NCBI RefSeq assembly: GCF_055900595.2
Contig: NZ_CM148325.1
Reading direction: 5' to 3' (one strand)
Length of the DNA stretch: 64,000 nucleotides
Position numbers and translations under genes: made by a program. Every line of letters begins with the position of its first letter. Position 1 is the first letter of the stretch. Below the pieces are notes generated by a model that was not told the DNA's origin, made no database searches, and worked only from the letters and a program-made list of their open reading frames with translations. Positions 5,695 to 44,416 of the stretch are shown piece after piece.

Positions 5695-7017
<1,323 letters not shown>

Positions 7018-7064: not shown

Positions 7065-7236
7065 GCATAATTGACCCCTGTGCCTGAACTTACCACCTGG
7101 GTGAGTTCAGGTTTATTTCACTTCTTCCGTGACATTTTCATGTTCTTGCGGTCTAACACGAAGTGTTTTTAATGTCATTTAGACTGACCGACAACGGGCA
7201 GTTTTTTATTACCAGGATAGTTGATCAGGGGTTCAC

Positions 7237-8733
7237 ATGCAGGGCACAAAAATTCGACTTTTAGCGGGCGGTTTGCTGATGATGGCCACTGCTGGCTATG
7301 TGCAGGCAGATGCGCTCCAGCCTGATCCAGCATGGCAACAGGGGACGCTTTCCAACGGTTTACAGTGGCAAGTGCTGACCACGCCCCAGCGTCCCAGCGA
7401 TCGTGTTGAAATTCGCCTGCTGGTTAATACCGGTTCGCTCGCCGAAAGTACACAACAGAGCGGTTACAGCCACGCCATCCCTCGTATTGCGTTAACGCAA
7501 AGCGGTGGCCTTGACGCAGCACAGGCGCGTTCATTGTGGCAGCAGGGGATCGACCCTAAACGCCCGATGCCGCCGGTAATTGTCTCTTATGACACCACGC
7601 TGTTTAATCTGAGTTTGCCCAATAACCGTAACGACTTGCTGAAAGAAGCGCTCTCTTATCTGGCAAATGCCACTGGCAAACTGACTATCACGCCAGAAAC
7701 CATCAACCACGCGTTGCAAAGTCAGGACATGGTGGCAACCTGGCCTGCCGATACTAAAGAGGGCTGGTGGCGCTATCGTCTGAAAGGATCAACCTTGTTA
7801 GGTCACGATCCTGCCGATCCGCTGAAACAACCCGTTGAAGCGGAAAAGATTAAAGATTTCTATCAGAAATGGTACACCCCGGATGCAATGACGCTGCTGG
7901 TGGTGGGAAACGTGGATGCGCGCTCGGTTGTCGACCAAATCAACAAAACGTTTGGCGAACTGAAAGGCAAACGTGAAACACCGGCCCCGGTGCCGACGCT
8001 TTCTCCGCTGCGTCCTGAAGCGGTGAGTATTATGACCGATGCGGTACGTCAGGACCGGTTATCTATCATGTGGGATACGCCGTGGCAGCCAATTCGTGAA
8101 TCAGCCGCACTGCTGCGCTACTGGCGTGCGGACCTGGCCCGTGAGGCGCTGTTCTGGCACGTTCAGCAAGCGTTAAGCACCAGTAACAGCAAAGACATCG
8201 GTCTTGGATTTGACTGCCGTGTGCTGTATCTGCGTGCGCAGTGTGCCATCAACATCGAGTCACCAAACGACAAGCTGAACAGCAACCTTAATTTGGTAGC
8301 GCGTGAGCTGGCAAAGGTTCGCGATAAAGGTCTGCCGGAAGAAGAGTTCAATGCGTTAGTGGCGCAAAAGAAACTGGAGCTGCAGAAACTGTTTGCCGCC
8401 TATGCGCGAGCTGATACCGATATTTTGATGGGGCAGCGGATGCGTTCGTTGCAAAATCAGGTCGTTGATATCGCGCCGGAGCAATATCAGAAACTGCGGC
8501 AGGATTTCCTTAATAGTCTGACGGTAGAGATGTTAAATCAGGATCTGCGCCAGCAGTTGTCGAACGATATGGCGTTAATTCTTCTGCAGCCGAAAGGCGA
8601 GCCAGAATTTAACATGAAAGCGTTGCAGGCGGCCTGGGATCAAATCATGGCCCCATCTACTACTGCTGCCACAACCTCTGTTGCCACGGATGACGTACAT
8701 CCTGAAGTGACGGATATTCCACCCGCACAGTAA
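7237..8733 (+). CDS. yhjJ: Putative periplasmic zinc-dependent peptidase YhjJ (M16 family), 498 aa
   Basis: Translation recognised as YhjJ; N-terminal signal-peptide-like segment. Confidence 0.9.
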   Translation: MQGTKIRLLAGGLLMMATAGYVQADALQPDPAWQQGTLSNGLQWQVLTTPQRPSDRVEIRLLVNTGSLAESTQQSGYSHAIPRIALTQSGGLDAAQARSLWQQGIDPKRPMPPVIVSYDTTLFNLSLPNNRNDLLKEALSYLANATGKLTITPETINHALQSQDMVATWPADTKEGWWRYRLKGSTLLGHDPADPLKQPVEAEKIKDFYQKWYTPDAMTLLVVGNVDARSVVDQINKTFGELKGKRETPAPVPTLSPLRPEAVSIMTDAVRQDRLSIMWDTPWQPIRESAALLRYWRADLAREALFWHVQQALSTSNSKDIGLGFDCRVLYLRAQCAINIESPNDKLNSNLNLVARELAKVRDKGLPEEEFNALVAQKKLELQKLFAAYARADTDILMGQRMRSLQNQVVDIAPEQYQKLRQDFLNSLTVEMLNQDLRQQLSNDMALILLQPKGEPEFNMKALQAAWDQIMAPSTTAATTSVATDDVHPEVTDIPPAQ

Positions 8734-8828
8734 TGCCTGATGGTGATGAGTTAGCACAACCATCAGGTATTTATGGATGAGCTGGATAGAGGGGTAACAC
8801 TTTATCCAGCCTTTTGCATATGCTGCTT

Positions 8829-24124: not shown

Positions 24125-24139
24125 TTTTTACCCAGACAT

Positions 24140-24245
24140 AAAAAAAACCCGGCATAGGGGACCGGGAAGAGGATAGTCTGCCGTCTCCAGACTAATAAAC
24201 CGTTATAACACTCCCTGTTGGCACGGGAAACTTTGTGCTCTCAGT
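24140..24245 (-). ncRNA. gadY: GadY small RNA (antisense to the gadX 3' end, Hfq-dependent)
   Basis: Minus-strand sequence ACTGAGAGCACAAAGTTTCCCGTGCCAACAGGGAGTGTTATAACGGTTTATTAGTCTGGAGACGGCAGACTATCCTCTTCCCGGTCCCCTATGCCGGGTTTTTTTT matches GadY as recalled, with a terminal hairpin and U-tract; ends approximate. Confidence 0.8.
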
Positions 24246-24491
24246 AAGTTAAATATAACTTTTACTGGAGATAAGATCAGCCATTTTTTTATAAACATAA
24301 GCTATGCGCTGTGTGAAAATATATTCTTCTTGCATTTTCTTATTATCAATTAACTGTTATGTCAAACTACTTTTTGGATAACTTTTGGTCCTACCAAATA
24401 TGGCAGTTTATGCACGAAGAAGCGGTCTGGCATCATTTCATTAGTATACTGAAATTGAAATAATCGCAGTAATGAAATATAAGGGATAGTC

Positions 24492-29878: not shown

Positions 29879-30216
29879 TTTAGTCCCTGAAAATTCTTGA
29901 GATATAACGGTTCTTTAAATTGCGCGCGAGGAGAGGTATGAGGGATTTACAGACCAGCGGCATAGTGGGGTTGTCAGCCAGTAAGATGGGATGCAAGCAC
30001 AGTGATCGACATGGTGAGGTCAACGACAAAAAAAATGTTGCCGTTCTGCCAACAGTTCCTGCCAGCATTCGGGCAACGAAGGGTTCTACTGGTGGATACA
30101 CATACCAGGGGAATAAAGTCGTTTTCGCCTCTCCTTTAGTCATCACCGGGGATAATGAAATCAGCATCTGCATCCCTCTTCATGCCTGCCATCATTTTCA
30201 GTTAATTATGTCCTGA

Positions 30217-30744
30217 CTAAAAATAAGATGTGATACCCAGGGTGACGATGTCGCTCATACGTCTTAGTTTCAGCTTGTACATAATGTTGAATTTCTGAAT
30301 CTTTAATGTTTGTTGCGAAATATTGAGCGTTGACGTGATATTGCTTTCGTTTTTGTTTTTCAGAATCAGCTGCATAATTTTGAACTGATTATGTGAAAAA
30401 CATAATTGTGAATTCTTATGGGGCAAGTGTTTACCATAAGTAATCTCAAGAAGATTTTTGATACTTTCTTTGCGGCTGACAAAATAAATAGGCGCTTTAG
30501 CTTTTAGTTTACTGATGTGATAAGGTGCCAAAACAATAATTCTCTCGGCGTCTAATTTCTCCAGAAATTTAATCGCTTCTTCATCAAGGATATGGTTGTG
30601 ATAGGTATCAATGATAACCTTGAAGGGTTTATTACCTACTTTTTTGATCTCTGACAGGGAATTGATTTTTATCATTTCGTGATTATCTTTCAACTGCCAA
30701 AAGCCCTGTAAAAGAAAAGAATCTTTCGTCATGAGAAAAATCAT
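30217..30744 (-). CDS. gadE: LuxR-family acid-resistance master regulator GadE, 175 aa
   Basis: Translation from MIFLMTKDSFLLQGFWQLKDNHEMIKINSLSEIKK recognised as GadE; the six-frame ORF runs 26 codons upstream. Confidence 0.92.
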   Translation of the reverse strand: MIFLMTKDSFLLQGFWQLKDNHEMIKINSLSEIKKVGNKPFKVIIDTYHNHILDEEAIKFLEKLDAERIIVLAPYHISKLKAKAPIYFVSRKESIKNLLEITYGKHLPHKNSQLCFSHNQFKIMQLILKNKNESNITSTLNISQQTLKIQKFNIMYKLKLRRMSDIVTLGITSYF

Positions 30745-31542
30745 AACTTGCTCCTTAGCCGTTATCGTTTCGAACATGTCATCCTTTTCATTATTTACAT
30801 CCCTGTCCGAATCGTTGTTCAATATAGTAAACGCCTATAAGAACCTTGCCCTTCGTGAACTAATACGTCTATTAACACTAATCAATACTTCAGATTTATC
30901 CATCACGCACTCCATATATTGATCCTAAGTAAAATTCCTGGTTGTTATCAGATTGTAAACTGCAAGCAAAAAATTAACGTTTGCGGATTACTGCCCAAGA
31001 ATAAGTTATCAATAACCAGTTTGTGATCTCTGAAGAATATTACTAAAGTTAAAATGTAATCCGATTTAAATATCGAGTCTCCTTGTTTCGACTTAAGCTG
31101 GCAATTGGATTGCCAGCTTTCTTTTAACGCATTGAAATTACCTGAGTAAATAACTCATTCATGTCTTCAGGTTTTTATATAGCGTCTGGAGACACGGATA
31201 TTTATGCAATGTAATCAACGCCAGTTGCAAAAAAATGAACCCGGATTACTTATTTAACCGCCCATAGCATCAACGTTTACGGAACTCTTTGTTCACTTTC
31301 CCACAGCACTTTTAAAACATTAAACCTGACTACGGAAAATATCAGCCATGATAATGTTTGAAATGGCTAATTTGCCATGCAATGAAAAAAATCAGATAAA
31401 ATTCAGTAGGTTGAAATACTCATCAGCAGGTAATTATTTCAATGATAGCGCGCAATTGATCTAAAATGCTGTGTAGCGGAGAGAGTATTAATTGGATCAT
31501 AGTCACATCAAGTGACTATGATCCAGGTGGCAATAGGGATAA
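30745..31542 (-). promoter_or_regulatory. Extended gadE upstream regulatory region (multiple promoters and long 5' UTRs)
   Basis: About 800 bp of AT-rich non-coding DNA between hdeD and gadE, matching the known large gadE control region; individual sites not resolved by eye. Confidence 0.5.
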
Positions 31543-32115
31543 TTATTGCTTTTTAACAAACAAACTGGCGAAGCTGAACAGGCTAGCGGCGCTAAATATC
31601 AGTTCAATTCCCACTAGTGTGGAAACCAGCGTTACAGAAACCATCGGCGTTGCACCAAGGAATATCCAGGCAATGACGATATCCAGCACACCAATAACGA
31701 GCTGTAGCCAACTGCCTTTCATTGAACGCTGACGATACCAACTCATCAGGCGAATAACTCCTGCCACACAGAACAAACCGGCAATAAATGCCGCAATGGC
31801 AAAAATGCCCAGCTCCGGTGCGCGGATGAAGAAATAGCCGATCAATAAATAGGCGACTGCGACGAGGAAACCGGATAATACCGGCCAGAAATTATGACTG
31901 CGGTTGCTGAATAGCCCGACAATAAGCGCAATGCCCGAGCAGATTAATAATGCACCCACTACTGTGCTTAAAATATCGCCAGAGACGAACGGAAAACTGA
32001 TACACAGCAACCCGACGATAAACAGCAGCACGGCAATAAACTGGATTGCTCTGCGATGTTTTTTAAGCATCTCCAGATCAAACTTCAAAATTGTTGCCTT
32101 ATCTATATATAACAT
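31543..32115 (-). CDS. hdeD: Acid-resistance membrane protein HdeD, 190 aa
   Basis: Translation recognised as HdeD. Confidence 0.95.
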   Translation of the reverse strand: MLYIDKATILKFDLEMLKKHRRAIQFIAVLLFIVGLLCISFPFVSGDILSTVVGALLICSGIALIVGLFSNRSHNFWPVLSGFLVAVAYLLIGYFFIRAPELGIFAIAAFIAGLFCVAGVIRLMSWYRQRSMKGSWLQLVIGVLDIVIAWIFLGATPMVSVTLVSTLVGIELIFSAASLFSFASLFVKKQ

Positions 32116-32369
32116 AGAACCACCCTATAAAATTAAGAAGAAAATCCCCTGCTATCAATCTATGCCAAAAACGCGTCTAAGAATGCAGTCGATTTAATAA
32201 AAATTTCCTAATTACAGTATCAGATGCATCTGTAACTCATTGTATTGAAATAAAAATATCTGATTTTGATATTTTCCATCAACATGACATATACAGAAAA
32301 CCAGGTTATAACCTCAGTGTCGAAATTGATTCGTGACGGCTCTTTCACTTTATAGTTGAGGATATTACG

Positions 32370-32702
32370 ATGAAAAAAGTATTAGGCGTTATTCTTGGTG
32401 GTCTGCTTCTTCTGCCAGTGGTCAGCAATGCAGCGGATGCACAAAAAGCAGCTGATAACAAAAAACCGGTCAACACCTGGACCTGTGAAGATTTTCTGGC
32501 TGTGGACGAATCCTTCCAGCCAACTGCAGTTGGTTTTGCTGAAGCACTGAACAATAAAGATAAACCAGAAGATGCGGTTTTAGATGTTCAGGGTATTGCA
32601 ACCGTAACCCCAGCGATCGTTCAGGCTTGTACTCAGGATAAACAAGCCAACTTTAAAGATAAAGTTAAAAGCGAATGGGACAAAGTTAAGAAAGATATGT
32701 AA
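32370..32702 (+). CDS. hdeA: Periplasmic acid-stress chaperone HdeA, 110 aa
   Basis: Translation recognised as HdeA. Confidence 0.95.
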   Translation: MKKVLGVILGGLLLLPVVSNAADAQKAADNKKPVNTWTCEDFLAVDESFQPTAVGFAEALNNKDKPEDAVLDVQGIATVTPAIVQACTQDKQANFKDKVKSEWDKVKKDM

Positions 32703-32817
32703 TTCCGGGAATACGTTACATCGTACTTCCTTGCATATTGAACAGGTAGGAATACCTTCTTCAAAAGCAGCTATTCCTTCTGTTCATATTTAATCTCTAT
32801 ATTGAATGGGTTACAAA

Positions 32818-33144
32818 ATGAATATTTCATCTCTCCGTAAAGCGTTTATTTTTATGGGCGCTGTAGCGGCTTTGTCACTGGTGAACGCACAATCTGCGCT
32901 GGCAGCCAATGAATCCGCTAAAGATATGACTTGCCAGGAATTTATTGATCTGAATCCAAAAGCAATGACACCGGTTGCGTGGTGGATGCTGCATGAAGAA
33001 ACAGTTTATAAAGGTGGTGATACTGTTACTTTAAATGAAACCGATCTTACTCAAATTCCTAAAGTGATCGAATACTGCAAAAAAAATCCGCAGAAAAATT
33101 TGTATACTTTCAAAAATCAAGCATCTAATGACTTGCCGAATTAA
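32818..33144 (+). CDS. hdeB: Periplasmic acid-stress chaperone HdeB, 108 aa
   Basis: Translation from MNISSLRKAFIFMGAVAALSLVNAQSALA recognised as HdeB; the six-frame ORF starts 4 codons upstream. Confidence 0.93.
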   Translation: MNISSLRKAFIFMGAVAALSLVNAQSALAANESAKDMTCQEFIDLNPKAMTPVAWWMLHEETVYKGGDTVTLNETDLTQIPKVIEYCKKNPQKNLYTFKNQASNDLPN

Positions 33145-33207
33145 TGGGGCACAAGTAAAAAGGAGTAGCAAGTTGAGCCATCTTGCTGCTCCTTTTTGCA
33201 TTTTTAT

Positions 33208-33855
33208 ATGACAGCAGAATTTATTATACGTCTTATACTCGCGGCAATTGCCTGTGGCGCTATTGGCATGGAAAGGCAAATGCGCGGCAAAGGAGCAGGG
33301 TTACGCACACATGTATTAATTGGCATGGGAAGCGCCCTGTTTATGATTGTTTCGAAATATGGTTTTGCTGACGTGCTGTCTTTAGATCACGTCGGACTGG
33401 ACCCCAGCCGTATTGCTGCTCAGGTGGTGACGGGCGTCGGGTTTATCGGTGCAGGTAACATTCTCGTTCGTAACCAAAATATTGTAGGTCTGACGACGGC
33501 AGCGGATATCTGGGTGACCGCCGCCATTGGTATGGTTATTGGTAGCGGTATGTACGAACTGGGCATTTATGGTTCAGTGATGACCTTACTGGTGCTGGAA
33601 GTCTTCCATCAATTAACCTTCCGCCTGATGAATAAAAATTACCATTTACAGCTGACATTAGTGAACGGTAATACGGTATCAATGCTCGACTGGTTTAAGC
33701 AGCAAAAAATAAAAACGGATTTAGTTTCGTTGCAGGAAAATGAAGATCATGAAGTGGTCGCCATTGATATCCAGCTTCATGCCACGACGTCGATAGAAGA
33801 TCTGTTGCGATTATTAAAAGGTATGGCAGGGGTGAAAGGCGTTTCAATTAGCTAA
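33208..33855 (+). CDS. yhiD: MgtC-family inner membrane protein YhiD, 215 aa
   Basis: Translation from MTAEFIIRLILAAIACGAIGMERQ recognised as YhiD. Confidence 0.92.
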   Translation: MTAEFIIRLILAAIACGAIGMERQMRGKGAGLRTHVLIGMGSALFMIVSKYGFADVLSLDHVGLDPSRIAAQVVTGVGFIGAGNILVRNQNIVGLTTAADIWVTAAIGMVIGSGMYELGIYGSVMTLLVLEVFHQLTFRLMNKNYHLQLTLVNGNTVSMLDWFKQQKIKTDLVSLQENEDHEVVAIDIQLHATTSIEDLLRLLKGMAGVKGVSIS

Positions 33856-33875
33856 TCTATATAGTTATTTATTCG

Positions 33876-33909
33876 CAGGAGTACCAGAGCGGTACTCCTG
33901 TTGGTTTTA
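33876..33909 (+). terminator. Terminator hairpin between yhiD and chuV (convergent)
   Basis: CAGGAGTACC-AGAGC-GGTACTCCTG followed by TTGGTTTT. Confidence 0.7.
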
Positions 33910-34677
33910 ATGATCGAGGACGATCAGTGGTGAATGGTTGGCAGGATCTTTAAGTACGGTAATATTCGCGCCGTAGAGCATTGTCAGCGCCTGCTGTGTC
34001 AATACGTCCTGCGGTTTACCATTTGCGATAACCTTTCCTTTTTGCATTAATACAACACGGTCTGCATAACGCGCGGCAAGATTTAGATCGTGCAATACGC
34101 AGCAAACATTGAACTGCCGTTCGTGAACTAGCTGGCGTAATAAACGAAACAAGTGCTGCTGATGGTGAATATCCAGCGCCGAAGTTGGTTCATCAAGAAA
34201 TAACCATTTCGGTGAGGGAGTTGGTTCCCAGAGTTGCACCAGCAGGCGCGCTAATTGCACGCGCTGTTGTTCACCACCGGATAATTGCCGATAGTCGCGG
34301 TTTGCTAACGCCTGACAGTCACATAACGCCATTATTTGTGCTGTTTCATTATCCTGATTACCAGTACGATGCGGATGCCGCCCCATCTGGATAACTTCTT
34401 GTACGCTGAATGGAAACGCCATGTGGCTATTTTGACGCATCACGGCCCGGTGTTTCGCCAGTTCAGTAATCGACCATTCATTTAATGGCTTATTAAACAA
34501 CCGACATTCGCCGCTATCAGGTTGAAGATAGCCGGTTAACTGGCGAAGCAGCGTAGATTTTCCCGCACCATTAGGGCCGAGAATGGCAACAATTTCCCCA
34601 CCGGGAAAAGTCAGCGAGACATTATCAGTCAGACGCCGCCCCTGAAGGCTATAAACCAGATTCTGGGCGCTGATCAT
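33907..34677 (-). CDS. chuV: Haemin ABC transporter ATP-binding protein ChuV (HmuV), 256 aa
   Basis: Walker A (GPNGAGKST), ABC signature (LSGGEQQR), Walker B ([11 protein letters not shown]); matches ChuV/ShuV. The ATG overlaps the chuU stop (ATGA); the six-frame ORF runs 51 codons upstream. Confidence 0.92.
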
Positions 34678-35666
34678 GTGATCCTCCGGTTGCGCAGAAT
34701 CAACCACATAAAATAAGGGCCACCAAGCAGGCTGGTTAATAATCCCACGGGCATTTCTGCTGGCTGTACCAGTGTGCGGGCAAGCGTGTCTGCCATCAGC
34801 AATAAACAGGCTCCGGCGAGGGCGGAGCAAGGGATTAGCCAGCGGTGATTTGCCCCGGTAGTCATACGAATCAGATGCGGGATCACCAGGCCAATAAAGC
34901 CGATAATGCCGCTTACCGATACGGCGGCACCAACGAGCAGTGAGCTCACTAACAGTAATTGCTGGCGTTTACGCTTAACGTTCACGCCGAGGTAGTGGGC
35001 TTCTTCATCACCGAGCTGCAGTAAATTCAGCGTTCCGGCGAGACAAGTTGTTGCAATAATGGCCGGTAGGATGAATGAACTGGCAACCAATAACGTCGGC
35101 CATTGCGCCTGTCCAAGATTGCCCATCATCCACAATGTGAGTTGTCGTAGCTGCTGCTCATCGCCGATATAGCTCAGGATGCCGATCGCTGCGCCGCACA
35201 GGGCATTGATGGCGATACCGGCGAGTAATAATTGCATCATGCTGCCATCGCGATGGCGCTGCGTGATGAGAAAAATGATGGTGCAGACCACTAAACTTCC
35301 GGCAATGGCAAACACCATTTGCTCATAGAGCACCAGCACCACTGGGAAGGAAAAGGGCAGCACAATAGCAACGCCAACCATTAATGCAGAACCGCTACTG
35401 ACGCCGAGTAATCCAGGGTCAGCCATTGGGTTGCGAAAAAGCCCCTGCATAATTACCCCGGCGGTTGCCAACGCTGCACCTACCAGCACCGCCAGCAAAA
35501 CCCGTGGTAGACGAATATTGAGCCAGATATCGCGGTATTCCTCATCAAAAAGGGCATCAAAACTGATCTTTAACGCTCCCTGACTGGCACCGAACAGCAC
35601 CAGAGCTAGCAATAATAGTGATAGCCCCATAAAGACCCTGGCGGAAGAGAGTGAATCCTTGAGCAC
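34674..35666 (-). CDS. chuU: Haemin ABC transporter permease ChuU (FecCD family), 330 aa
   Basis: Translation recognised as ChuU/HmuU; polytopic membrane protein. Confidence 0.93.
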
Positions 35667-35714
35667 GCAAAACTCCGTTACGACATTACGGCGCGGAGAT
35701 TCCGCGCCGGGGGA

Positions 35715-36338
35715 TCACGCCGGTTTCAGGTCCGGTTCAATCAGACTGTAGACCTGCTGGTTAAGTGCTGGCGCATTTGCCAGTTCATGGATATGTGCGG
35801 CGACATCGGCACGGTTAACAAAACCATGACACTCCTGATTTTGTATCCGTTGTGCTTTGCCCGTTGCCGCACCATCAAGCAGACCGCCAGGGCGGAGAAT
35901 GGCGTAATCAAGCTGGCTGGTTTGCAACCAGCTTTCCGCCAGCGTTTTTTCCCGTACCGCCTGACCAAACGCAGCCTTTGCCCGCTCCGATAAAAACGGC
36001 CAGCTATCGCCACATCCCAAAGAGGTCACCAGAATCATGCGACTGATGCCGGCCTTTTCGGCCTCATCAATCACTGTTCTGTGTGCCAGATAATCCTGAG
36101 CTCCGCCCATTGTTGAGATGATAAGCGCATCCGGGCCAGCTGCGCGGCAAGCAGCCGCGACTACGCTGGCATCACAGGCGTCGCCTGTAAAAACCTGTAC
36201 GCCTTGTTGCGCCAGTTTCGTGGCGGCATCAGCATGACGAATGACAGCAACGACCGGACGTTGTTCCGCCAGCGCCAGTTCAAGCGTTCTGGCACCCACA
36301 CCTTTTCCGCCTGCGCCAAAGAGTAGCCACGGCGTCAT
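35715..36338 (-). CDS. chuY: ChuY, NAD(P)-binding reductase of the haem utilisation locus (anaerobilin reductase), 207 aa
   Basis: N-terminal Rossmann-type glycine-rich motif (LLFGAGGKGVGART); matches ChuY. Confidence 0.9.
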   Translation of the reverse strand: MTPWLLFGAGGKGVGARTLELALAEQRPVVAVIRHADAATKLAQQGVQVFTGDACDASVVAAACRAAGPDALIISTMGGAQDYLAHRTVIDEAEKAGISRMILVTSLGCGDSWPFLSERAKAAFGQAVREKTLAESWLQTSQLDYAILRPGGLLDGAATGKAQRIQNQECHGFVNRADVAAHIHELANAPALNQQVYSLIEPDLKPA

Positions 36339-36832
36339 CAGGCGTGTTCCTTTAACGATGCTGCCAGAGCATGGAAGGCGCTGACTTGTTCGCTCAGGAG
36401 CTGACGATGGTCATCCCTGCCGAGGAAGATTTTCAGCATTGCGCTGCCTTCTTTGTTGAAAAAGAGAATGGATGCGGTGTCCATGCCCATAAATTTACGT
36501 TCGATCAAGGCAATATGTGTGCAGTTTTCTGCTTTGATATGCCCGGACATGCCGTGCTTTCCGCGTAGGTTGAAATAGCCGTGGCGATGGAAACCCGAAG
36601 GCAGTTCGCCGCTAAATTCGAGGATTACATCGGCAGTATGTACTAACGTGGTGACGTTGCCCCATTCGCAGACGGTATCCCAGACAGTATCGAATTTATC
36701 GCCTGACACTACGGTAGAGGAGGGTAGATTTCTCACTACTTCCAGCAGTGTGGTGTTGTATTGTTCGGCTACCACCTCCAGCGTACCGTCCGGCTCCGTT
36801 TTCAAAAATTCTTGTAACGAGACATGGCTCAT
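36338..36832 (-). CDS. chuX: ChuX, cytoplasmic haem-binding protein, 164 aa
   Basis: Translation recognised as ChuX; its stop overlaps the chuY start. Confidence 0.9.
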   Translation of the reverse strand: MSHVSLQEFLKTEPDGTLEVVAEQYNTTLLEVVRNLPSSTVVSGDKFDTVWDTVCEWGNVTTLVHTADVILEFSGELPSGFHRHGYFNLRGKHGMSGHIKAENCTHIALIERKFMGMDTASILFFNKEGSAMLKIFLGRDDHRQLLSEQVSAFHALAASLKEHA

Positions 36833-36844
36833 AAATCACTCCTG

Positions 36845-38182
36845 TTATGGTTTTTCACGCACAATCGTTGGCGCATTAAGTGCCTGAATTAGTTCATTAA
36901 GAGACTGCAAAATATTGCTTGCCCAGAAACGACCTTCATTAGTCAGCCGCAGGCAAGTTGAAGCATCGCGGCTTAAGCCTTTTTGGTGCCATTGAGCCAG
37001 TAACGGCGCGAGTTTTTCGGCATGTGGCGTAAGTTCATCCAGCGGTACACGCGCTGTTTCAACACCTGACTGCAAGGTATGACGCCATTGCGCATTACGT
37101 TCGGCGTTACGCATGATCATCATCAGCGGTTTTTTGCCTGCCGCGACGGATTCATGCCAGGTCTGAAGACTGCGTTCGTTCATCCAGGAGTAACCATTAA
37201 TCGAACCGCCGGCTCCGGAACCAAAGGCCAGACAATCGGCACCTTGTTTAATCAGCAGGTTATAGAGATTGCGTTCGCGTGTGGTACGGCCCCAGTGGCT
37301 GTTACTGATACAGCGCCAACCAGCTTCGTCCATGAAGTCACACCCTTGCAGATAAAGATCGCGTCGTTCTGCCGGAGAGGGCACGGTAGTACGCCCATTT
37401 TCCACGGCTTTGCCCAGCGGTGTATTGGGCAGGACATTGAGCGCATAGAGATCGACGCCGTCGAGACCGATATCGCGGGCAATAGTCAGATCTTCTCCCC
37501 AGGTTTGCGCATCCTGACCCGGCAGGCCAAACAGAAGGTCACAGACCACCGCAGCACGGTCGCGTTTGACCAGGCTTTCCATAAACGCAATGGCGGTTGG
37601 GCCATCCGAGGTGCGGGCCATTTTCTTACGGATTTTGCTGTTAAACGACTGAATACCAATTGAGAAGCGGTTTGCTCCTGCATCAAGGCAAGCATCGATT
37701 CGCTCAGCGTCAAAATTCAGTACCCGGCCTTCGATAGTGATTTCACAATCAGGGGCCAGTGGCAGCTTTTCTCGTAATGTGGTGATAATTCTGGCCAAAT
37801 CGTGTGCCGAAAGCGCGGAAGGCGTGCCGCCACCGAAATAGACCGCGTGGATGGGGGCAGACTGATGCAATACGCTGTCCGCTTCCATTTCTATTTCACG
37901 AATCAGGGCGTCGGTATAATGAGCACACGCATCTTCATTAAAACGGTTCTGATAAAAACCACAAAACGTGCAGTGTGTTGCACAAAAAGGAATGTGTAGA
38001 TAAACCAGTCGCTTACGTGGTGATACCGTTTGATTGAGCATCTCTTGCCAGGTCTGTGCCAGTTGCTCTTTGGCAACTGGAATGGCCCCACGAAACGGCA
38101 TCATGGCGCGCCTGTCTTTAAATGGCTGATCACCGTCTAAAGCAAAATGTGGCGTGAGATCCAGGGGGTTATTTGTGTTCAT
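36845..38182 (-). CDS. chuW: ChuW, radical SAM haem-degrading methyltransferase (HemN-like; anaerobilin synthase), 445 aa
   Basis: Radical SAM CxxxCxxC motif (CATHCTFCGF) and HemN-like architecture; matches ChuW. Confidence 0.92.
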   Translation of the reverse strand: MNTNNPLDLTPHFALDGDQPFKDRRAMMPFRGAIPVAKEQLAQTWQEMLNQTVSPRKRLVYLHIPFCATHCTFCGFYQNRFNEDACAHYTDALIREIEMEADSVLHQSAPIHAVYFGGGTPSALSAHDLARIITTLREKLPLAPDCEITIEGRVLNFDAERIDACLDAGANRFSIGIQSFNSKIRKKMARTSDGPTAIAFMESLVKRDRAAVVCDLLFGLPGQDAQTWGEDLTIARDIGLDGVDLYALNVLPNTPLGKAVENGRTTVPSPAERRDLYLQGCDFMDEAGWRCISNSHWGRTTRERNLYNLLIKQGADCLAFGSGAGGSINGYSWMNERSLQTWHESVAAGKKPLMMIMRNAERNAQWRHTLQSGVETARVPLDELTPHAEKLAPLLAQWHQKGLSRDASTCLRLTNEGRFWASNILQSLNELIQALNAPTIVREKP

Positions 38183-38201
38183 TCGTCTGATTTAAATCCA
38201 T

Positions 38202-39116
38202 TTATTGTGGCCAAAGCTGCTGGTGTAAAGACTCAACGACATCAGCAATACGCGGACCCATTCCCAGAATCAGGTTTTGATCAACGGTGATAATGCGCTG
38301 GTTTTTCCATGCGGCAGTGTGGGTAATTCCGGCAATAGAACGTAGCCGGTTAATATCGCCATCGACCATTTGTGAGGTTACGACAATCACTTCTGGATTA
38401 GCCGCAATCAGTGATTCTGCACTGTAGCTTTTGTACTGCTGGTGGGTTGCGACGTTTTCTGCTCCGGCAAGCGAAAGAATGGCGTCCGCGACGCTGCCTT
38501 TACCGGCAACCTGTGGCGCACTTCCGCCTGCGGAGAGAATAAACATGGCTTTAACCGGGGCTTTTTTGGCCGCCACGTTTTGCTGTACTCGCTCCAGGCG
38601 TTGGTTGATCTGTGTCACCAGCGCCTCGCCTTGTTCAGGAACCTGTAGCGTTTTTGCCAGTTGGCGAATGTTGGCGTACATCTGCTCAAGGGTGGCAGGC
38701 ACACGCGGCAGGGTGACGACGTTGACTTTCTGCGCTCGTAGTTGGTCGAGCACAATTTGTGGCCCGGCATCCTGCCAGGTAATTACGCTATCCGGGCGAA
38801 GTGACAAAATGCCTTCGCTGCTGAGTTGTTTCCAGTAGCCAATATGCGGCAGTTTGGCGGTTTCTGGTGGATAAGATGTCGTTTCATCGACACCAACCAC
38901 GCGTTCGCCAGCGCCCATCGCGTAGATTAGCTCCGTCAGCGATCCTCCTGCGACCACGATACGTTCGGCAGCCGTTACGCTAAAAGCCCAGCTAAGAGCC
39001 AGTACTGCCGTAAACAATTTTTTTCGTTTTACCGCGGTCTTCGCGGCAGAGGCCACGGCTGAAATACATAACGTCAGTGGGGAAAAAAGAAACGGCCTGG
39101 TGATGATCCTTGGCAT
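38202..39116 (-). CDS. chuT: ChuT, periplasmic haem-binding protein of the ABC importer, about 304 aa
   Basis: Translation recognised as ChuT/ShuT. Start set at MPRIITR because the longer six-frame ORF would place the Fur box inside the coding sequence; exact start uncertain. Confidence 0.85.
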   Translation of the reverse strand: MPRIITRPFLFSPLTLCISAVASAAKTAVKRKKLFTAVLALSWAFSVTAAERIVVAGGSLTELIYAMGAGERVVGVDETTSYPPETAKLPHIGYWKQLSSEGILSLRPDSVITWQDAGPQIVLDQLRAQKVNVVTLPRVPATLEQMYANIRQLAKTLQVPEQGEALVTQINQRLERVQQNVAAKKAPVKAMFILSAGGSAPQVAGKGSVADAILSLAGAENVATHQQYKSYSAESLIAANPEVIVVTSQMVDGDINRLRSIAGITHTAAWKNQRIITVDQNLILGMGPRIADVVESLHQQLWPQ

Positions 39117-39140
39117 AATATGAGAACTCTTATCAAATTG

Positions 39141-39161
39141 AGAATGATCATGATTATCATT
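39141..39161. promoter_or_regulatory. Fur box at the chuT promoter
   Basis: AGAATGATCATGATTATCATT closely matches the Fur consensus GATAATGATAATCATTATC, about 25 bp upstream of the chuT start. Confidence 0.7.
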
Positions 39162-39490
39162 TGAGTTATATATGAAATACAACCGTCGATTCAATACGCA
39201 AGGCGTTACAAGCGTATTTATTTTTGATTTTTATCAAGATGCTTCGTCAGCTAACGTTCTTGTTACCGACTAAATTTCAGCGCGGGAAAAAGCTGAGAAC
39301 CCAGAGATATCGCGGCTTGCAGAGCAAAGAGAAGAGAAAATTATCACTGTTAACGACAAAGTTTAGTGATGAGGTTATGGGGGAATAACCATAAAAACAA
39401 AGTGGTTTCCAGGGCGCAGGATAGGTTTCATAACCCCCTGTTTATTGTGTTAATGGCGGTTAAAAAAAGCTTGATCATAAAAAATTGATC

Positions 39491-39509
39491 GATAATAATT
39501 CTCATTATC
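39491..39509. promoter_or_regulatory. Fur box at the chuA promoter
   Basis: GATAATAATTCTCATTATC is a near-consensus Fur box about 290 bp upstream of the chuA ATG, implying a long 5' UTR. Confidence 0.7.
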
Positions 39510-39798
39510 ACGTTCGCGCTTAACAAAACACGACCATATGGATAACAAAACCATAGCATTTGCAAGGGATAACGCACAGCGCTCTTCACTCCTGATGGGG
39601 CATATCGTTTTGCCTGATAAAGAGGGCGTGCTTTTGCGTATTTGCCGAGATACCAGGCAATTTCATGGGATATAAACGCCTGTAAACTCACCCGGCGAAT
39701 ATTATCGCTCTGAATTTTAAATAAATTTATTTCTCGCAAGCCACCCCGGTATTAACCCAGGCAGCCAGCATTTTTTATTTTCCTCATGGAGAATCGCT

Positions 39799-41781
39799 AT
39801 GTCACGTCCGCAATTTACCTCGTTGCGTTTGAGTTTGTTGGCTTTGGCTGTTTCTGCCACCTTGCCAACGTTTGCTTTTGCTACTGAAACCATGACCATT
39901 ACGGCAACGGGGAATGCCCGTAGTTCCTTCGAAGCGCCTATGATGGTCAGCGTCATCGACACTTCCGCTCCTGAAAATCAAACGGCTACTTCAGCCACCG
40001 ATCTGCTGCGTCATGTTCCTGGAATTACTCTTGATGGTACCGGACGAACCAACGGTCAGGATGTAAATATGCGTGGCTATGATCATCGCGGCGTGCTGGT
40101 TCTTGTCGATGGTGTTCGCCAGGGAACGGATACCGGACACCTGAATGGTACTTTTCTCGATCCGGCGCTGATCAAGCGTGTTGAGATTGTTCGCGGACCT
40201 TCAGCATTACTGTATGGCAGTGGCGCGCTGGGTGGGGTGATCTCCTACGATACGGTCGATGCAAAAGATTTATTGCAGGAAGGACAAAGTAGTGGTTTTC
40301 GTGTCTTTGGTACTGGTGGCACGGGGGACCATAGCCTGGGATTAGGCGCGAGCGCGTTTGGGCGAACTGAAAATCTGGATGGTATTGTGGCCTGGTCCAG
40401 TCGCGATCGGGGTGATTTACGCCAGAGCAATGGTGAAACCGCGCCGAATGACGAGTCCATTAATAACATGCTGGCGAAAGGGACCTGGCAAATTGATTCA
40501 GCCCAGTCTCTGAGCGGTTTAGTGCGTTACTACAACAACGACGCGCGTGAACCAAAAAATCCGCAGACCGTTGAGGCTTCTGAAAGCAGCAACCCGATGG
40601 TTGATCGTTCAACAATTCAACGCGATGCGCAGCTTTCTTATAAACTCGCCCCGCAGGGCAACGACTGGTTAAATGCAGATGCAAAAATTTACTGGTCGGA
40701 AGTCCGTATTAATGCGCAAAACACGGGGAGTTCCGGCGAGTATCGTGAACAGATAACAAAAGGAGCCAGGCTGGAGAACCGTTCCACTCTATTTGCCGAC
40801 AGTTTCGCTTCTCACTTACTGACATATGGCGGTGAGTATTATCGTCAGGAACAACATCCGGGCGGCGCGACGACGGGCTTTCCGCAAGCAAAAATCGATT
40901 TTAGCTCTGGCTGGCTACAGGATGAGATCACCTTACGCGATCTGCCGATTACCCTGCTTGGCGGAACCCGCTATGACAGTTATCACGGTAGCAGCGACGG
41001 CTACAAAGATGTTGATGCTGACAAATGGTCATCTCGTGCGGGGATGACTATCAACCCGACCAACTGGCTGATGTTATTTGGCTCATATGCCCAGGCATTC
41101 CGCGCCCCGACGATGGGCGAAATGTATAACGATTCTAAGCACTTCTCGATTGGTAGCTTCTATACCAACTATTGGGTGCCAAACCCGAACTTACGTCCGG
41201 AAACTAACGAAACTCAGGAGTACGGTTTTGGGCTGCGTTTTGATGACCTGATGTTGTCCAATGATGCCCTGGAATTTAAAGCCAGCTACTTTGATACCAA
41301 AGCGAAGGATTACATCTCCACGACTGTCGATTTCGCGGCTGCGACAACTATGTCGTATAACGTCCCGAACGCCAAAATCTGGGGCTGGGATGTGATGACG
41401 AAATATACCACTGATCTGTTTAGCCTTGATGTGGCCTATAACCGTACCCGCGGCAAAGACACCGATACCGGGGAATATATTTCCAGTATTAACCCGGATA
41501 CCGTTACCAGCACCCTGAATATTCCGATCGCTCACAGTGGCTTCTCTGTTGGTTGGGTCGGTACGTTTGCCGATCGCTCAACACATATCAGCAGCAGTTA
41601 CAGCAAACAACCTGGCTATGGTGTGAATGATTTCTACGTCAGTTATCAAGGGCAGCAGGCGCTCAAAGGTATGACCACTACTCTGGTATTGGGCAACGCC
41701 TTCGACAAAGAGTACTGGTCGCCGCAAGGCATCCCACAGGATGGTCGTAACGGAAAAATTTTCGTGAGTTATCAATGGTAA
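39799..41781 (+). CDS. chuA: ChuA, TonB-dependent outer-membrane haem/haemoglobin receptor, 660 aa
   Basis: Translation recognised as ChuA/ShuA; signal peptide, TonB-box region, C-terminal aromatic terminus (SYQW). Confidence 0.95.
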   Translation: MSRPQFTSLRLSLLALAVSATLPTFAFATETMTITATGNARSSFEAPMMVSVIDTSAPENQTATSATDLLRHVPGITLDGTGRTNGQDVNMRGYDHRGVLVLVDGVRQGTDTGHLNGTFLDPALIKRVEIVRGPSALLYGSGALGGVISYDTVDAKDLLQEGQSSGFRVFGTGGTGDHSLGLGASAFGRTENLDGIVAWSSRDRGDLRQSNGETAPNDESINNMLAKGTWQIDSAQSLSGLVRYYNNDAREPKNPQTVEASESSNPMVDRSTIQRDAQLSYKLAPQGNDWLNADAKIYWSEVRINAQNTGSSGEYREQITKGARLENRSTLFADSFASHLLTYGGEYYRQEQHPGGATTGFPQAKIDFSSGWLQDEITLRDLPITLLGGTRYDSYHGSSDGYKDVDADKWSSRAGMTINPTNWLMLFGSYAQAFRAPTMGEMYNDSKHFSIGSFYTNYWVPNPNLRPETNETQEYGFGLRFDDLMLSNDALEFKASYFDTKAKDYISTTVDFAAATTMSYNVPNAKIWGWDVMTKYTTDLFSLDVAYNRTRGKDTDTGEYISSINPDTVTSTLNIPIAHSGFSVGWVGTFADRSTHISSSYSKQPGYGVNDFYVSYQGQQALKGMTTTLVLGNAFDKEYWSPQGIPQDGRNGKIFVSYQW

Positions 41782-41829
41782 TCATCTGCCCCGATATTTC
41801 GGGGCATTTATCTGGAAGGAAGAGAGACA

Positions 41830-42858
41830 ATGAACCACTACACACGCTGGCTTGAGTTAAAAGAACAAAATCCCGGAAAGTACGCGCGTGACATCGCAGG
41901 TTTAATGAATATTAGCGAAGCAGAACTGGCATTTGCGCGCGTCACGCACGATGCGTGGCGGATGTGCGGCGATATCCGTGACATTCTGGCGGCGCTCGAA
42001 AGTGTTGGCGAGACCAAATGTATTTGTCGTAATGAATATGCAGTCCATGAGCAAGTTGGTGCGTTCACAAACCAGCATTTAAACGGACATGCCGGATTGA
42101 TCCTCAATCCGCGCGCGCTGGATTTGCGTCTGTTTCTCAATCAATGGGCCAGTGTTTTCCACATCAAAGAAAATACGACTCGTGGCGAACGCCAGAGTAT
42201 TCAGTTCTTTGATCATCAGGGCGATGCATTACTAAAAGTTTATGCCACCGACAATACCGATATGGCGGCATGGAGTGAGCTTCTGGCACGGTTTATCACC
42301 GATGAGAATACGCCGCTTGAGTTAAAAGCCGTTGATGCGCCAGTTGTTCAAAAGCGAGCCGATGCCAGTGTGGTCGAGCAAGAGTGGCGGGCGATGACCG
42401 ACGTTCATCAGTTTTTTACGTTGCTCAAGCGCCACAACCTGACGCGCCAACAGGCGTTCAATCTGGTGGCAGATGATTTGGCCTGCAAAGTATCCAACAG
42501 TGCGTTGGCGCAAATTCTTGAATCTGCACAGCAGGATGGCAATGAAATCATGGTGTTTGTTGGCAACCGTGGCTGCGTACAGATTTTCACTGGCGTGGTA
42601 GAAAAAGTGGTGCCAATGAAAGGTTGGCTGAATATTTTTAACCCGACGTTTACTCTTCATCTATTAGAAGAGAGCATTGCTGAAACCTGGGTAACCCGTA
42701 AACCTGCTAGTGACGGTTATGTGACCAGTCTGGAATTGTTTGCCCATGATGGTACGCAGATAGCGCAACTTTATGGTCAACGTACAGAAGGCGAACAGGA
42801 GCAAGCGCAATGGCGTAAGCAAATTGCTTCGCTGATACCGGAAGGCGTTACTGCATAA
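41830..42858 (+). CDS. chuS: ChuS, haem oxygenase / haem degradation protein, 342 aa
   Basis: Translation recognised as ChuS/ShuS. Confidence 0.93.
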   Translation: MNHYTRWLELKEQNPGKYARDIAGLMNISEAELAFARVTHDAWRMCGDIRDILAALESVGETKCICRNEYAVHEQVGAFTNQHLNGHAGLILNPRALDLRLFLNQWASVFHIKENTTRGERQSIQFFDHQGDALLKVYATDNTDMAAWSELLARFITDENTPLELKAVDAPVVQKRADASVVEQEWRAMTDVHQFFTLLKRHNLTRQQAFNLVADDLACKVSNSALAQILESAQQDGNEIMVFVGNRGCVQIFTGVVEKVVPMKGWLNIFNPTFTLHLLEESIAETWVTRKPASDGYVTSLELFAHDGTQIAQLYGQRTEGEQEQAQWRKQIASLIPEGVTA

Positions 42859-42918
42859 CGTATAATTAAAGGGAGGTCTGGCTATTTATTGCTGGGCCTC
42901 TTTATATTAATCAATCGA

Positions 42919-43449
42919 TCACACCAGATAATCAATATGCTGATGGCGTACCAACTCATTGATCCGCTTAAGATTGAGGATCATCATGATATTGTGTTTA
43001 TGGCAGTAGAACGTTTTTAGCGATATTTTCAGTTTCTCCAGAATATCTTCCGTTGTCATTTGATTCGCAATGCAGCTCAGAACCTGATGCTGCTTGCGCG
43101 AAAGGGACACATCCGCTTCAGGCACAGAGCAGTAACTGCCATTGATGAGTGCGACAAAGTCGATGATGGTGATAGTTCGCGGAACAAAGGTCACCGGTAC
43201 TTTCCCCAGGCAGCGTTTAATATTAAAGGGAGAGAAAATAATCACATGGACAGGTTTTAATCGTTCAATCTGAGTGAGCAAATTAGAATGAAATACATTA
43301 TTCATTAATGTATCAATAATGACGAAGGCATGCTGATGCAACATTACGTCGATCTCTTCTTCGTTCTGTATATGAACGACATTACCTTTGCTCAGAATGT
43401 TTTTCATCGCAGTGAAGAACATCGTATCCCTGGTAATTATAAGAAACAT
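42919..43449 (-). CDS. dctR: LuxR-family regulator DctR (YhiF), 176 aa
   Basis: Translation recognised as DctR/YhiF. Confidence 0.93.
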   Translation of the reverse strand: MFLIITRDTMFFTAMKNILSKGNVVHIQNEEEIDVMLHQHAFVIIDTLMNNVFHSNLLTQIERLKPVHVIIFSPFNIKRCLGKVPVTFVPRTITIIDFVALINGSYCSVPEADVSLSRKQHQVLSCIANQMTTEDILEKLKISLKTFYCHKHNIMMILNLKRINELVRHQHIDYLV

Positions 43450-43604
43450 AACCGACTCCTGGTGCGGACATTAACTTTATAATCAGTTTGCCAAAGGTAA
43501 TTAACAGGACAGGGCTTATAATAATAATAGTTAGCTGGCTGTGTATTAATTTGATGTAATGCATGATGCAGATGCTGAGAAAGCATCTGCATCTCTCGGT
43601 GGTG

Positions 43605-44171
43605 TTATTTGACCAGCTCAGGTGTTACTTGACTCACCGCATTGGTGTAGTAAGGCGCGCCCCAGCCCGGTTCCGGCCAGAATGCACCATAGCCGTAATC
43701 CCACAGGTTATAGGTGGTATTAACCACTTCTCTCAAATGCCACACCTGGATGCCCTGCATATTCACTTCCAGGAAGTTATACGGGACTTTATTGATAAAG
43801 CCAGGTTGTTCACCCTGAATGGTACCGAGGATGGTAACAAAGTGATTACGATAGTTCACTGGATCAAGGAAGCCGCTTTGTCTGGCGAGCAGTCGGCCCT
43901 GATAGTTGGCTTCAATATCAGGCTTCGCATAGCTATCCAACGGTAATACAGCGATTTCTAACAACGTATCCGTTTTACCATTGATAACGTTGATAACCTT
44001 CCCGCCAAAGCGCGCTTGTTGACCAACATATAACCCCGGCTGGTTATGAACAGCAACAAAACTTTTTTGAATATCAGGTTGGTTATTGCCTTTGATATTT
44101 TGCGGAATTGAACTACATGCGGCAAGCAAAAATGAAAGGCTGAGGATGAGTGCACCTTTTGTCATGTTCAT
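43605..44171 (-). CDS. slp: Outer-membrane starvation lipoprotein Slp, 188 aa
   Basis: Translation from MNMTKGALILSLSFLLAACSS (lipobox LAAC) recognised as Slp; the six-frame ORF runs 73 codons upstream. Confidence 0.92.
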   Translation of the reverse strand: MNMTKGALILSLSFLLAACSSIPQNIKGNNQPDIQKSFVAVHNQPGLYVGQQARFGGKVINVINGKTDTLLEIAVLPLDSYAKPDIEANYQGRLLARQSGFLDPVNYRNHFVTILGTIQGEQPGFINKVPYNFLEVNMQGIQVWHLREVVNTTYNLWDYGYGAFWPEPGWGAPYYTNAVSQVTPELVK

Positions 44172-44416
44172 GTTACTATCCTTATCAACAAATATTAAAA
44201 CCATAATAGATATTTCTTTATAGTTTTCATCTGATTCTGAGGCGATATGCCTGATAGTAACGTAAACCTGTCTGATGTTTATATCCCTTCTGTTTAGTTT
44301 AATTCTGTTAATTTTGGGGCGTGACATGAGTATCCATCGCCCCATAAAATAGCCTTTTTTTAAAGGTACATAAAATCTATTTTTATTCAATGCTTATAAA
44401 GCGCTAATGTTCAATA

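Follow-up and report, generated by a model that had tools for sequence, protein, structure and literature searches.

The chu locus is known as an iron source associated with virulence, and one of its genes, chuA, is among those used for assigning E. coli to phylogroups. In E. coli O157:H7, where it is the equivalent of the shu locus of Shigella dysenteriae, the locus is O-island 140 and consists of eight genes in two divergent units at the yhiD-dctR (yhiF) site of the acid fitness island (PMC10540162, PMC3893438, PMC5799925). The window analyzed here, that is, the whole stretch of 64,000 nucleotides of contig NZ_CM148325.1 (assembly GCF_055900595.2), carries the same eight genes in the same two divergent units and at the same site, and also shares with O-island 140 the junction sequences, the Fur elements and the thermometer elements (PMC10540162, PMC3893438, PMC3660397, PMC5458455). 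Both the locus and its arrangement are already known, and the differences from O-island 140 are only allelic, the genes of the window being 97-99% identical to those of an O157-like locus. In the chuT-chuA intergenic region, the window is 96.5% identical to the O157-like sequence and 88.9% identical to that of phylogroup B2, and the chuS-dctR spacer differs from the B2 spacer by a 4-bp indel.

More distant likenesses are found in the hemR/hmuR-S-T-U-V loci of Citrobacter, Enterobacter, Kluyvera and Yersinia, in which, as in the window, the gene for a TonB-dependent receptor precedes that for a ChuS-type protein, and a haem ABC transporter is encoded as well. In Citrobacter, Enterobacter and Kluyvera, the counterparts of ChuA and ChuS are 84-88% and 78-85% identical, respectively, to the proteins of the window, and those of ChuT, ChuU and ChuV are 31-37%, approximately 60% and approximately 50% identical; the genes in these three genera are colinear and have no W, X or Y genes within 10 kb, whereas the genes of the window are divergent. 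The Yersinia locus is colinear in the order W-X-Y-R-S-T-U-V, with W-X-Y upstream, at 55-70% identity overall and 55-59% for W-X-Y. Thus, given that the two divergent chu units have different nearest relatives, the Escherichia locus looks, on these identities, as if two modules of separate history had been joined.

The hutWXZ genes of Vibrio cholerae and hmuW of Fusobacterium provide a further comparison, in that ChuW of the window is recognised by the HutW equivalog model, and ChuX by that for HutX; the anaerobic haem-degradation chemistry of the Vibrio and Fusobacterium type has been reviewed (PMC10114669, PMC10404700). In contrast to hutWXZ, the third gene in the window is not hutZ but chuY, which encodes a reductase (PDB 5guy), and, unlike in Vibrio and Fusobacterium, the W, X and Y genes are part of the transporter operon, where they separate chuT from chuU.

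With regard to the history of the locus, the xenoGI study found the same eight genes in the E. albertii island and a non-syntenic island without the chu genes in E. fergusonii, a distribution that requires either insertion followed by clean deletion, or transfer combined with gene conversion (PMC5799925).

An intact chu locus within the acid fitness island

The list of open reading frames for window positions 30000-47000 includes six minus-strand ORFs in a row and a plus-strand pair within 33907-42858, an interval that is bounded by the stop codons of chuV and chuS. The gene order along the window is chuV-U-Y-X-W-T on the minus strand, followed by chuA-chuS on the plus strand; an earlier note on this DNA, made from the sequence alone, gave the genes in textbook order, opposite to that along the window. 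When positions 33000-44000 were compared by megablast with 5,426 complete E. coli genomes, identity was 100% to E. coli E200086 (NZ_CM128605.1) and to a few sister strains, so that the source is E. coli, in line with the chu-positive E. coli or Shigella lineage proposed in the note. The RefSeq annotation of NZ_CM128605.1 lists hdeA, hdeB, yhiD, a haem ABC transporter ATPase (chuV), shuU/chuU, chuY, hutX/chuX, hutW/chuW, shuT/chuT, chuA, chuS, dctR and slp, and carries no pseudogene flag for any of these genes; none of the eight chu ORFs, which are all full length, contains an internal stop. The acid fitness island set annotated around chu in this identical record comprises slp, dctR, yhiD, hdeB, hdeA, hdeD, gadE, mdtE, mdtF, gadW, gadX and gadA, and the small RNAs GadY and ES205 are present in the window. 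The placement of chu between yhiD and dctR within the slp-gadA island, as put forward in the note, is borne out by this annotation and by the comparison with K-12 given below.

In the minus-strand unit, the haem ABC transporter ATPase gene chuV (33907-34677) matches NF010068 with 394.6 bits (cut-off 261), and its product retains the Walker A motif GPNGAGKS and the LSGG signature. By 4 bp, chuV overlaps chuU (34674-35666), the gene for the transporter permease, which was assigned from the ShuU/ChuU annotation and from matches to BtuC/FecCD-type permeases. The anaerobilin reductase gene chuY (35715-36338) was identified from annotation and from full-length matches to PDB 5guy and 5ffq (ChuY/ShuY-like, E = 1e-134), and chuX (36338-36832), encoding a cytoplasmic haem-binding carrier, from the HutX model TIGR04108 (209 bits) and PDB 2ovi (ChuX, E = 3e-108). 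The radical-SAM methyltransferase of anaerobic haem degradation, encoded by chuW (36845-38182), matches TIGR04107 (rSAM_HutW) with 571 bits (cut-off 400) and has its CX3CX2C motif, CATHCTFC, at residue 67; the nearest solved structure is HemN, which is in keeping with ChuW being a radical-SAM enzyme of class C. The last gene of this unit, chuT (38202-39116), is annotated as the gene for the periplasmic haem-binding protein, and residues 49-304 of its product match ShuT (PDB 2r7a/2rg7, E = 2e-162).

In the plus-strand unit, chuA (39799-41781) encodes the TonB-dependent outer-membrane haem/haemoglobin receptor (TIGR01785, 586 bits; PDB 9dir, 9dhe and 3fhh (ShuA), E = 0). The histidines at precursor positions 114 and 448 correspond to His86 and His420 of mature ChuA/ShuA. 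A GC-rich hairpin with a T-tail (41787-41806, plus strand), found in the terminator scan, is a putative element of the gap between chuA and chuS. The gene for the cytoplasmic haem-degrading and haem-binding protein, chuS (41830-42858), matches PDB 1u9t and 4cdp (ChuS) with E = 8e-227, and its product has both Arg100 and His193 among its catalytic and ligand residues.

For ChuV, ChuW, ChuX and ChuA, the scores exceed the curated cut-offs of NCBIfam, with hits at the equivalog level, and ChuS, ChuY, ChuA/ShuA, ShuT and ChuX are near-identical to solved structures. The claim of the note that eight complete and intact chu orthologues are present thus stands, with coordinates that match exactly and with agreement among family models, solved structures and motifs; the same holds for the presence of the anaerobic haem-degradation genes together with chuS, given the CX3CX2C motif of the radical-SAM protein ChuW and the matches of ChuY, ChuX and ChuS to their own solved structures. 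As judged from these data, the segment is almost certainly an intact locus for haem acquisition and utilisation of the Chu (Shu) type, located where this locus normally lies in the chromosome.

From what is known of these families, and with the proteins recognised here by sequence identity, ChuA would take haem, including haem derived from haemoglobin, across the outer membrane with energy supplied by TonB, ChuT would carry it across the periplasm, and ChuUV would pump it into the cytoplasm, where ChuS and ChuX would bind it. With oxygen present, haem would be degraded by ChuS, whereas in its absence radical-SAM ChuW would open the ring to yield anaerobilin, which ChuY would then reduce; this anaerobic pathway from ChuW through anaerobilin to ChuY is covered in PMC10114669 and PMC10404700.

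Predicted regulation of the two units

Fur sites were sought in the whole 64 kb, on both strands, as matches to the consensus with at most 3 mismatches. Fur-like sites were found in two places (four strand-specific matches, compared to 0.02 expected), both in the 682-bp chuT-chuA intergenic region. The predicted chuT Fur site (39140-39158, minus strand; consensus match with 3 mismatches) spans positions +1 to +19, and the chuT ATG follows exactly 42 nt downstream of its start, which is the layout published for shuT, where the transcription start lies 42 nt upstream and the Fur site occupies +1 to +19 with three mismatches (PMC5458455). The other predicted Fur box (39491-39509, 2 mismatches in the minus-strand reading), approximately 290 nt upstream of the chuA ATG, overlaps a chuA promoter-like site detected by the promoter scan (39471-39509, plus strand; TTGATC, a 17-nt spacer and AATAAT).

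The chuA/shuA FourU RNA thermometer over the Shine-Dalgarno sequence (39770-39801, plus strand) was recognised by Rfam RF02597 with 60.1 bits (gathering score 58), and in the predicted fold UUUUCC is paired with GGAGAA; the function of this thermometer has been demonstrated (PMC3660397). The 42-nt 5′ untranslated region of chuT (39117-39158, minus strand) folds into a weak hairpin, in which UUCUC is paired with the ribosome-binding region. The thermometer hairpins of both chuA and chuT are weak, with a stability not above that of shuffled sequence, a result that is expected for thermometers and does not count as support for them. The two divergent units, chuAS and chuTWXYUV, would each be repressed by Fur through one Fur box and, at low temperature, would each be held back by a short RNA thermometer over the ribosome-binding site.

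A consensus search of the window for GAD boxes returned only one, upstream of gadA, and none in chu; there is no sign in the sequence that GadE or the other Gad regulators reach into chu, whose predicted control elements are Fur boxes and RNA thermometers. A functional tie of haem uptake to acid resistance has been suggested (PMC10540162), and because no GAD box was found within chu, this tie has no support from the sequence.

Junctions and frequency of the chu block in E. coli

In K-12 MG1655, 41 bp separate the convergent genes dctR and yhiD. In a BLAST comparison, K-12 is aligned with the window up to position 33858 and again from position 42919, so that a block of 9,060 bp (33859-42918) in the window corresponds to a spacer of 38 bp in K-12. 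Homology stops 3 bp beyond the stop codon of yhiD, the left flank gene of the acid fitness island (33208-33855, plus strand; RefSeq annotation; NCBIfam NF007431, 401.7 bits), and restarts exactly at the stop codon of the right flank gene, dctR (42919-43449, minus strand; assigned by annotation). Thus, the block is missing from K-12, as the earlier note had asserted.

The frequency of each junction type was assessed by megablast of 120-bp probes, centred on the junctions, against the 5,426 complete E. coli genomes. The filled left junction was found in 2,236 genomes and the K-12-type empty junction in 3,179 genomes; given that the two together account for 5,415 of the 5,426 genomes, there are essentially two alleles. 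The right-junction probe detected 1,183 genomes only, because the B2 spacer, with its 4-bp indel and several substitutions, breaks the megablast words; the junction itself is unchanged.

The window comes from one of the filled lineages. The core segment of 12 kb at 51000-63000, when compared with the complete E. coli genomes, is 100% identical in 8 of 5,426, 97.9-98.4% identical in about nine further genomes, and at most 96.8% identical in all others. These three identity bands indicate that the window derives from a chu-positive E. coli lineage that is rare and branches deeply; they would fit a cryptic clade. The isolates of this lineage are mostly human, with one from a dog, and E200086 was obtained from human stool in Mali.

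The absence of the block from 3,179 of the 5,426 genomes, together with a step in GC content from 39-43% in the hdeAB-yhiD and dctR-slp flanks to 51-53% in chu, could be read as the mark of a recent insertion of the mobile genomic island type. Among the attributes of such islands (of the pathogenicity-island type), a composition that differs from the flanks is present; however, inspection of the RefSeq annotation and of the junction alignments, which the note had called for, revealed no direct repeat or target duplication, IS end or other mobile-element remnant, integrase, or tRNA gene at either junction. Moreover, it is the low-GC flanks, not chu, that have the atypical composition for E. coli. 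The junctions are also identical in lineages that are 2-12% divergent, and chu diverges in step with its flanks, as detailed in the next section. A recent insertion is, accordingly, largely refuted and very improbable.

Filled and empty alleles in other Escherichia

Relatives of the locus were sought by scanning a set of genomes, one for each GTDB species, with ChuS and then running tblastn with every protein of the window, which yielded three Escherichia loci and, outside Escherichia, the colinear hemR-S-T-U-V loci compared above; further loci were obtained through a DctR search and look-ups of gene context. Two of the three loci (L008 and L009) have the full chu locus between yhiD and dctR, with DNA that is approximately 90-92% identical to the window, although their records are labelled E. 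coli. The third (L007, from Escherichia sp. MOD1-EC7003), approximately 95% identical to the window, has only chuA-chuS at the yhiD-dctR site: a probably ERIC-like repeat of 82 bp stands in place of chuTWXYUV and the chuT promoter, and the chuA leader contains another copy of this repeat in inverted orientation. Another filled lineage (L105) has a frameshifted chuA, and one more locus (L106) lacks both chu and yhiD. A DctR homologue with 52% identity (P0042) was discarded, its urease context being unrelated.

The decay seen in two of these relatives, namely, the loss of chuTWXYUV in L007 and the chuA frameshift in L105, raises the question of whether the locus in the window is itself a decayed, non-functional remnant; with eight full-length ORFs, catalytic and ligand residues in place, conserved regulatory elements and no pseudogene marks in RefSeq, this is scarcely credible for the window.

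The identity of the chu genes to those of the window, 89-94% in L008 and L009 and 95-96% in L007, tracks that of the flanking genes. In the alignment, the window has its filled junctions in common with L008, L009, an O157-like strain and a B2 strain, across lineages that are 2-12% divergent. The same set of filled alleles has kept a terminator-like hairpin in the yhiD-chuV spacer (33875-33901, plus strand; 11 pairs followed by a T-run, from the terminator scan). In the chuS-dctR spacer, a hairpin read from the sequence, with a 10-pair stem that includes G-T pairs and is followed by TTTATATT (42873-42900, plus strand), has its stem retained, with base changes, in L007, L008 and L009. Shared junctions combined with co-divergence of chu and its flanks, seen here in Escherichia lineages at 5-12% divergence from the window, is, as far as sequence comparison goes, a vertical pattern and not one of recent transfer, although old inter-species recombination could mimic the co-divergence. 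The description of the locus in the earlier note as an island within an island is, thus, a fair one, but the nesting is old and common to other Escherichia lineages, and is not specific to the lineage from which the window comes.

In E. fergusonii ATCC 35469 (L099), the site is empty and the island around it is non-syntenic; the spacer of this strain could not be aligned with that of K-12 (1,855 of 2,000 shuffles scored as well) and is therefore of no help as a spacer outgroup. In GCA_020283705.1 (L102/L103), an empty site lies in the syntenic context gor-ars-slp-dctR|yhiD-hdeBA, with flank genes (L103) that are approximately 87% identical to those of every E. coli compared, including K-12. 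The 42-bp spacer of L103 can be aligned with the 41-bp spacer of K-12 with 27 of 41 positions identical, a score that was reached by none of 5,000 shuffles. By comparison, the similarity of the K-12 spacer to the sequence next to the left chu junction is at the chance level (887 of 2,000 shuffles), and that to the sequence next to the right junction is marginal (40 of 2,000 shuffles), through an inverted AGCCAGAC word. The homology of the K-12 and L103 spacers suggests that the empty allele has an old spacer of its own, which a deletion from the filled allele would not have produced.

History of the presence and absence of chu

These observations bear on an alternative under which the ancestor of E. 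coli already had chu, and the chu-negative phylogroups inherited the K-12-type state from a common ancestor that had lost the block in one clean deletion. Such a deletion is one of the two options given in the xenoGI study (PMC5799925), and chu is indeed present in several deeper Escherichia lineages; furthermore, the flank genes of an O157-like (filled) strain and of K-12 (empty) are 99.3% identical, so that the change between the two states took place without foreign flanking DNA. However, a deletion leaves no new sequence, and K-12 has 38 bp that are absent beside either chu junction and that are homologous to the empty-site spacer of the lineage with flank genes of approximately 87% identity. 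We consider a single deletion to be unlikely, although it deserves considerably more weight than either a recent insertion or a decayed locus.

The history to which we give the most weight, and for which we put the chances at about even, is that the presence or absence of chu at yhiD-dctR is an old polymorphism across Escherichia that, within E. coli, has been sorted or converted over very short tracts. The 9,060-bp block would have replaced a yhiD-dctR spacer of approximately 40 bp once, before the split of the Escherichia lineages other than E. fergusonii, and the filled and empty alleles would both have persisted since, with the window and K-12 as present-day carriers of the old filled and the old empty allele, respectively. 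Under such an old polymorphism, the K-12 empty allele would keep the pre-insertion spacer, still recognisable in L103, and the filled allele would have diverged along with the genus. The age of the alleles is read from sequence divergence, by which both states look old. At the same time, the 99.3% identity of the O157-like and K-12 flanks implies that the alleles were exchanged or sorted recently in E. coli, without foreign flanks, and speaks against an import from a distant donor. If the polymorphism is old, the chu-negative state of phylogroups A, B1 and C would have come about not by deletion but through the sorting of alleles or through gene conversion over short tracts.

The presence of chu in the window indicates only that the DNA originates from a chu-positive lineage. 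The data as a whole favour two long-lived alleles at the yhiD-dctR site, which bears on how the presence of chuA is to be read as a phylogenetic character. An old polymorphism, if true, would also answer the question raised by the xenoGI study, clean deletion or conversion (PMC5799925).

Composition of the chu locus

When compared with haem loci outside Escherichia, the chu locus looks, from protein similarity, like a join of two modules. The HemR and HemS proteins of Citrobacter, Enterobacter and Kluyvera are 78–88% identical to ChuA and ChuS of the window, whereas the same loci show only 31–37% identity to ChuT, ~60% to ChuU and ~50% to ChuV, and, unlike the chu locus, lack the W, X and Y genes. 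The most variable part of the locus is the chuT-chuA intergenic region (39117–39798), with 88.9% identity to B2 and 80–81% to two other filled Escherichia loci (L008 and L009).

A GC-rich hairpin of 8 pairs with a T-tail lies between chuA and chuS (41787–41806), that is, inside what has been described as a single transcription unit, and may attenuate chuS relative to chuA. Within the chuS-dctR spacer, a stretch of the hairpin stem, GTCTGGCTA (42873–42882), has a partial reverse-complement match, TAGCCAGAC, in the spacer of the K-12 empty site (7215–7252 of the K-12 comparison locus, L002). Local alignment of the two spacers was marginal (40/2,000 shuffles), and the match could be due to chance or could be a remnant of a shared terminator.

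States of the site in relatives

In Escherichia sp. MOD1-EC7003 (L007, 5891–6403), an 82-bp repeat is found in place of chuTWXYUV and the chuT promoter, and a second, inverted copy of the same repeat type lies within the chuA 5′ leader (6282–6403); we take both to be ERIC-like. By its gene content, this strain keeps the haem receptor and ChuS but not their dedicated transporter. Among the Logan records, SRR36465124 (DctR 86% identical) has a filled site with chuA broken into ORFs of 514 and 146 aa, and SRR26188688 (DctR 74% identical) has the order slp-dctR-hdeB-hdeA, with neither chu nor yhiD.

Source lineage and neighbouring regions

For the core segment at 51000–63000, 8 of 5,426 complete E. 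coli genomes showed 100% identity and about nine showed 97.9–98.4%, while none of the remainder exceeded 96.8%; judged by this segment, the source lineage is rare within E. coli.

Rfam matches in the window comprise GadY (24135–24248), ES205 between gadE and mdtE (30028–30099), and two copies of AgrB adjoining dinQ (50045–50127 and 50278–50362); each of the four lies on the minus strand. The O157-like E. coli SRCC 1675 (L006, NZ_CP015023.1) has lost mdtF, mdtE, gadE and most of gadW; at 8363–8745 of this locus, the annotation gives gadX and a gadW fragment, followed directly by hdeD.

Between yhiS and arsC, ~1.6 kb (45957–47556) has no counterpart in K-12; it encodes a permease of 337 aa, assigned to the ArsP_1 family in relatives, together with an ArsR/SmtB regulator in divergent orientation. 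The adjacent yhiS is intact (44417–45640, 407 aa), whereas that of K-12 is a pseudogene split by IS5. Two divergent Escherichia loci (L102 and L103) also carry the permease-regulator pair, so that the K-12 state of the yhiS-arsC segment, too, looks derived.
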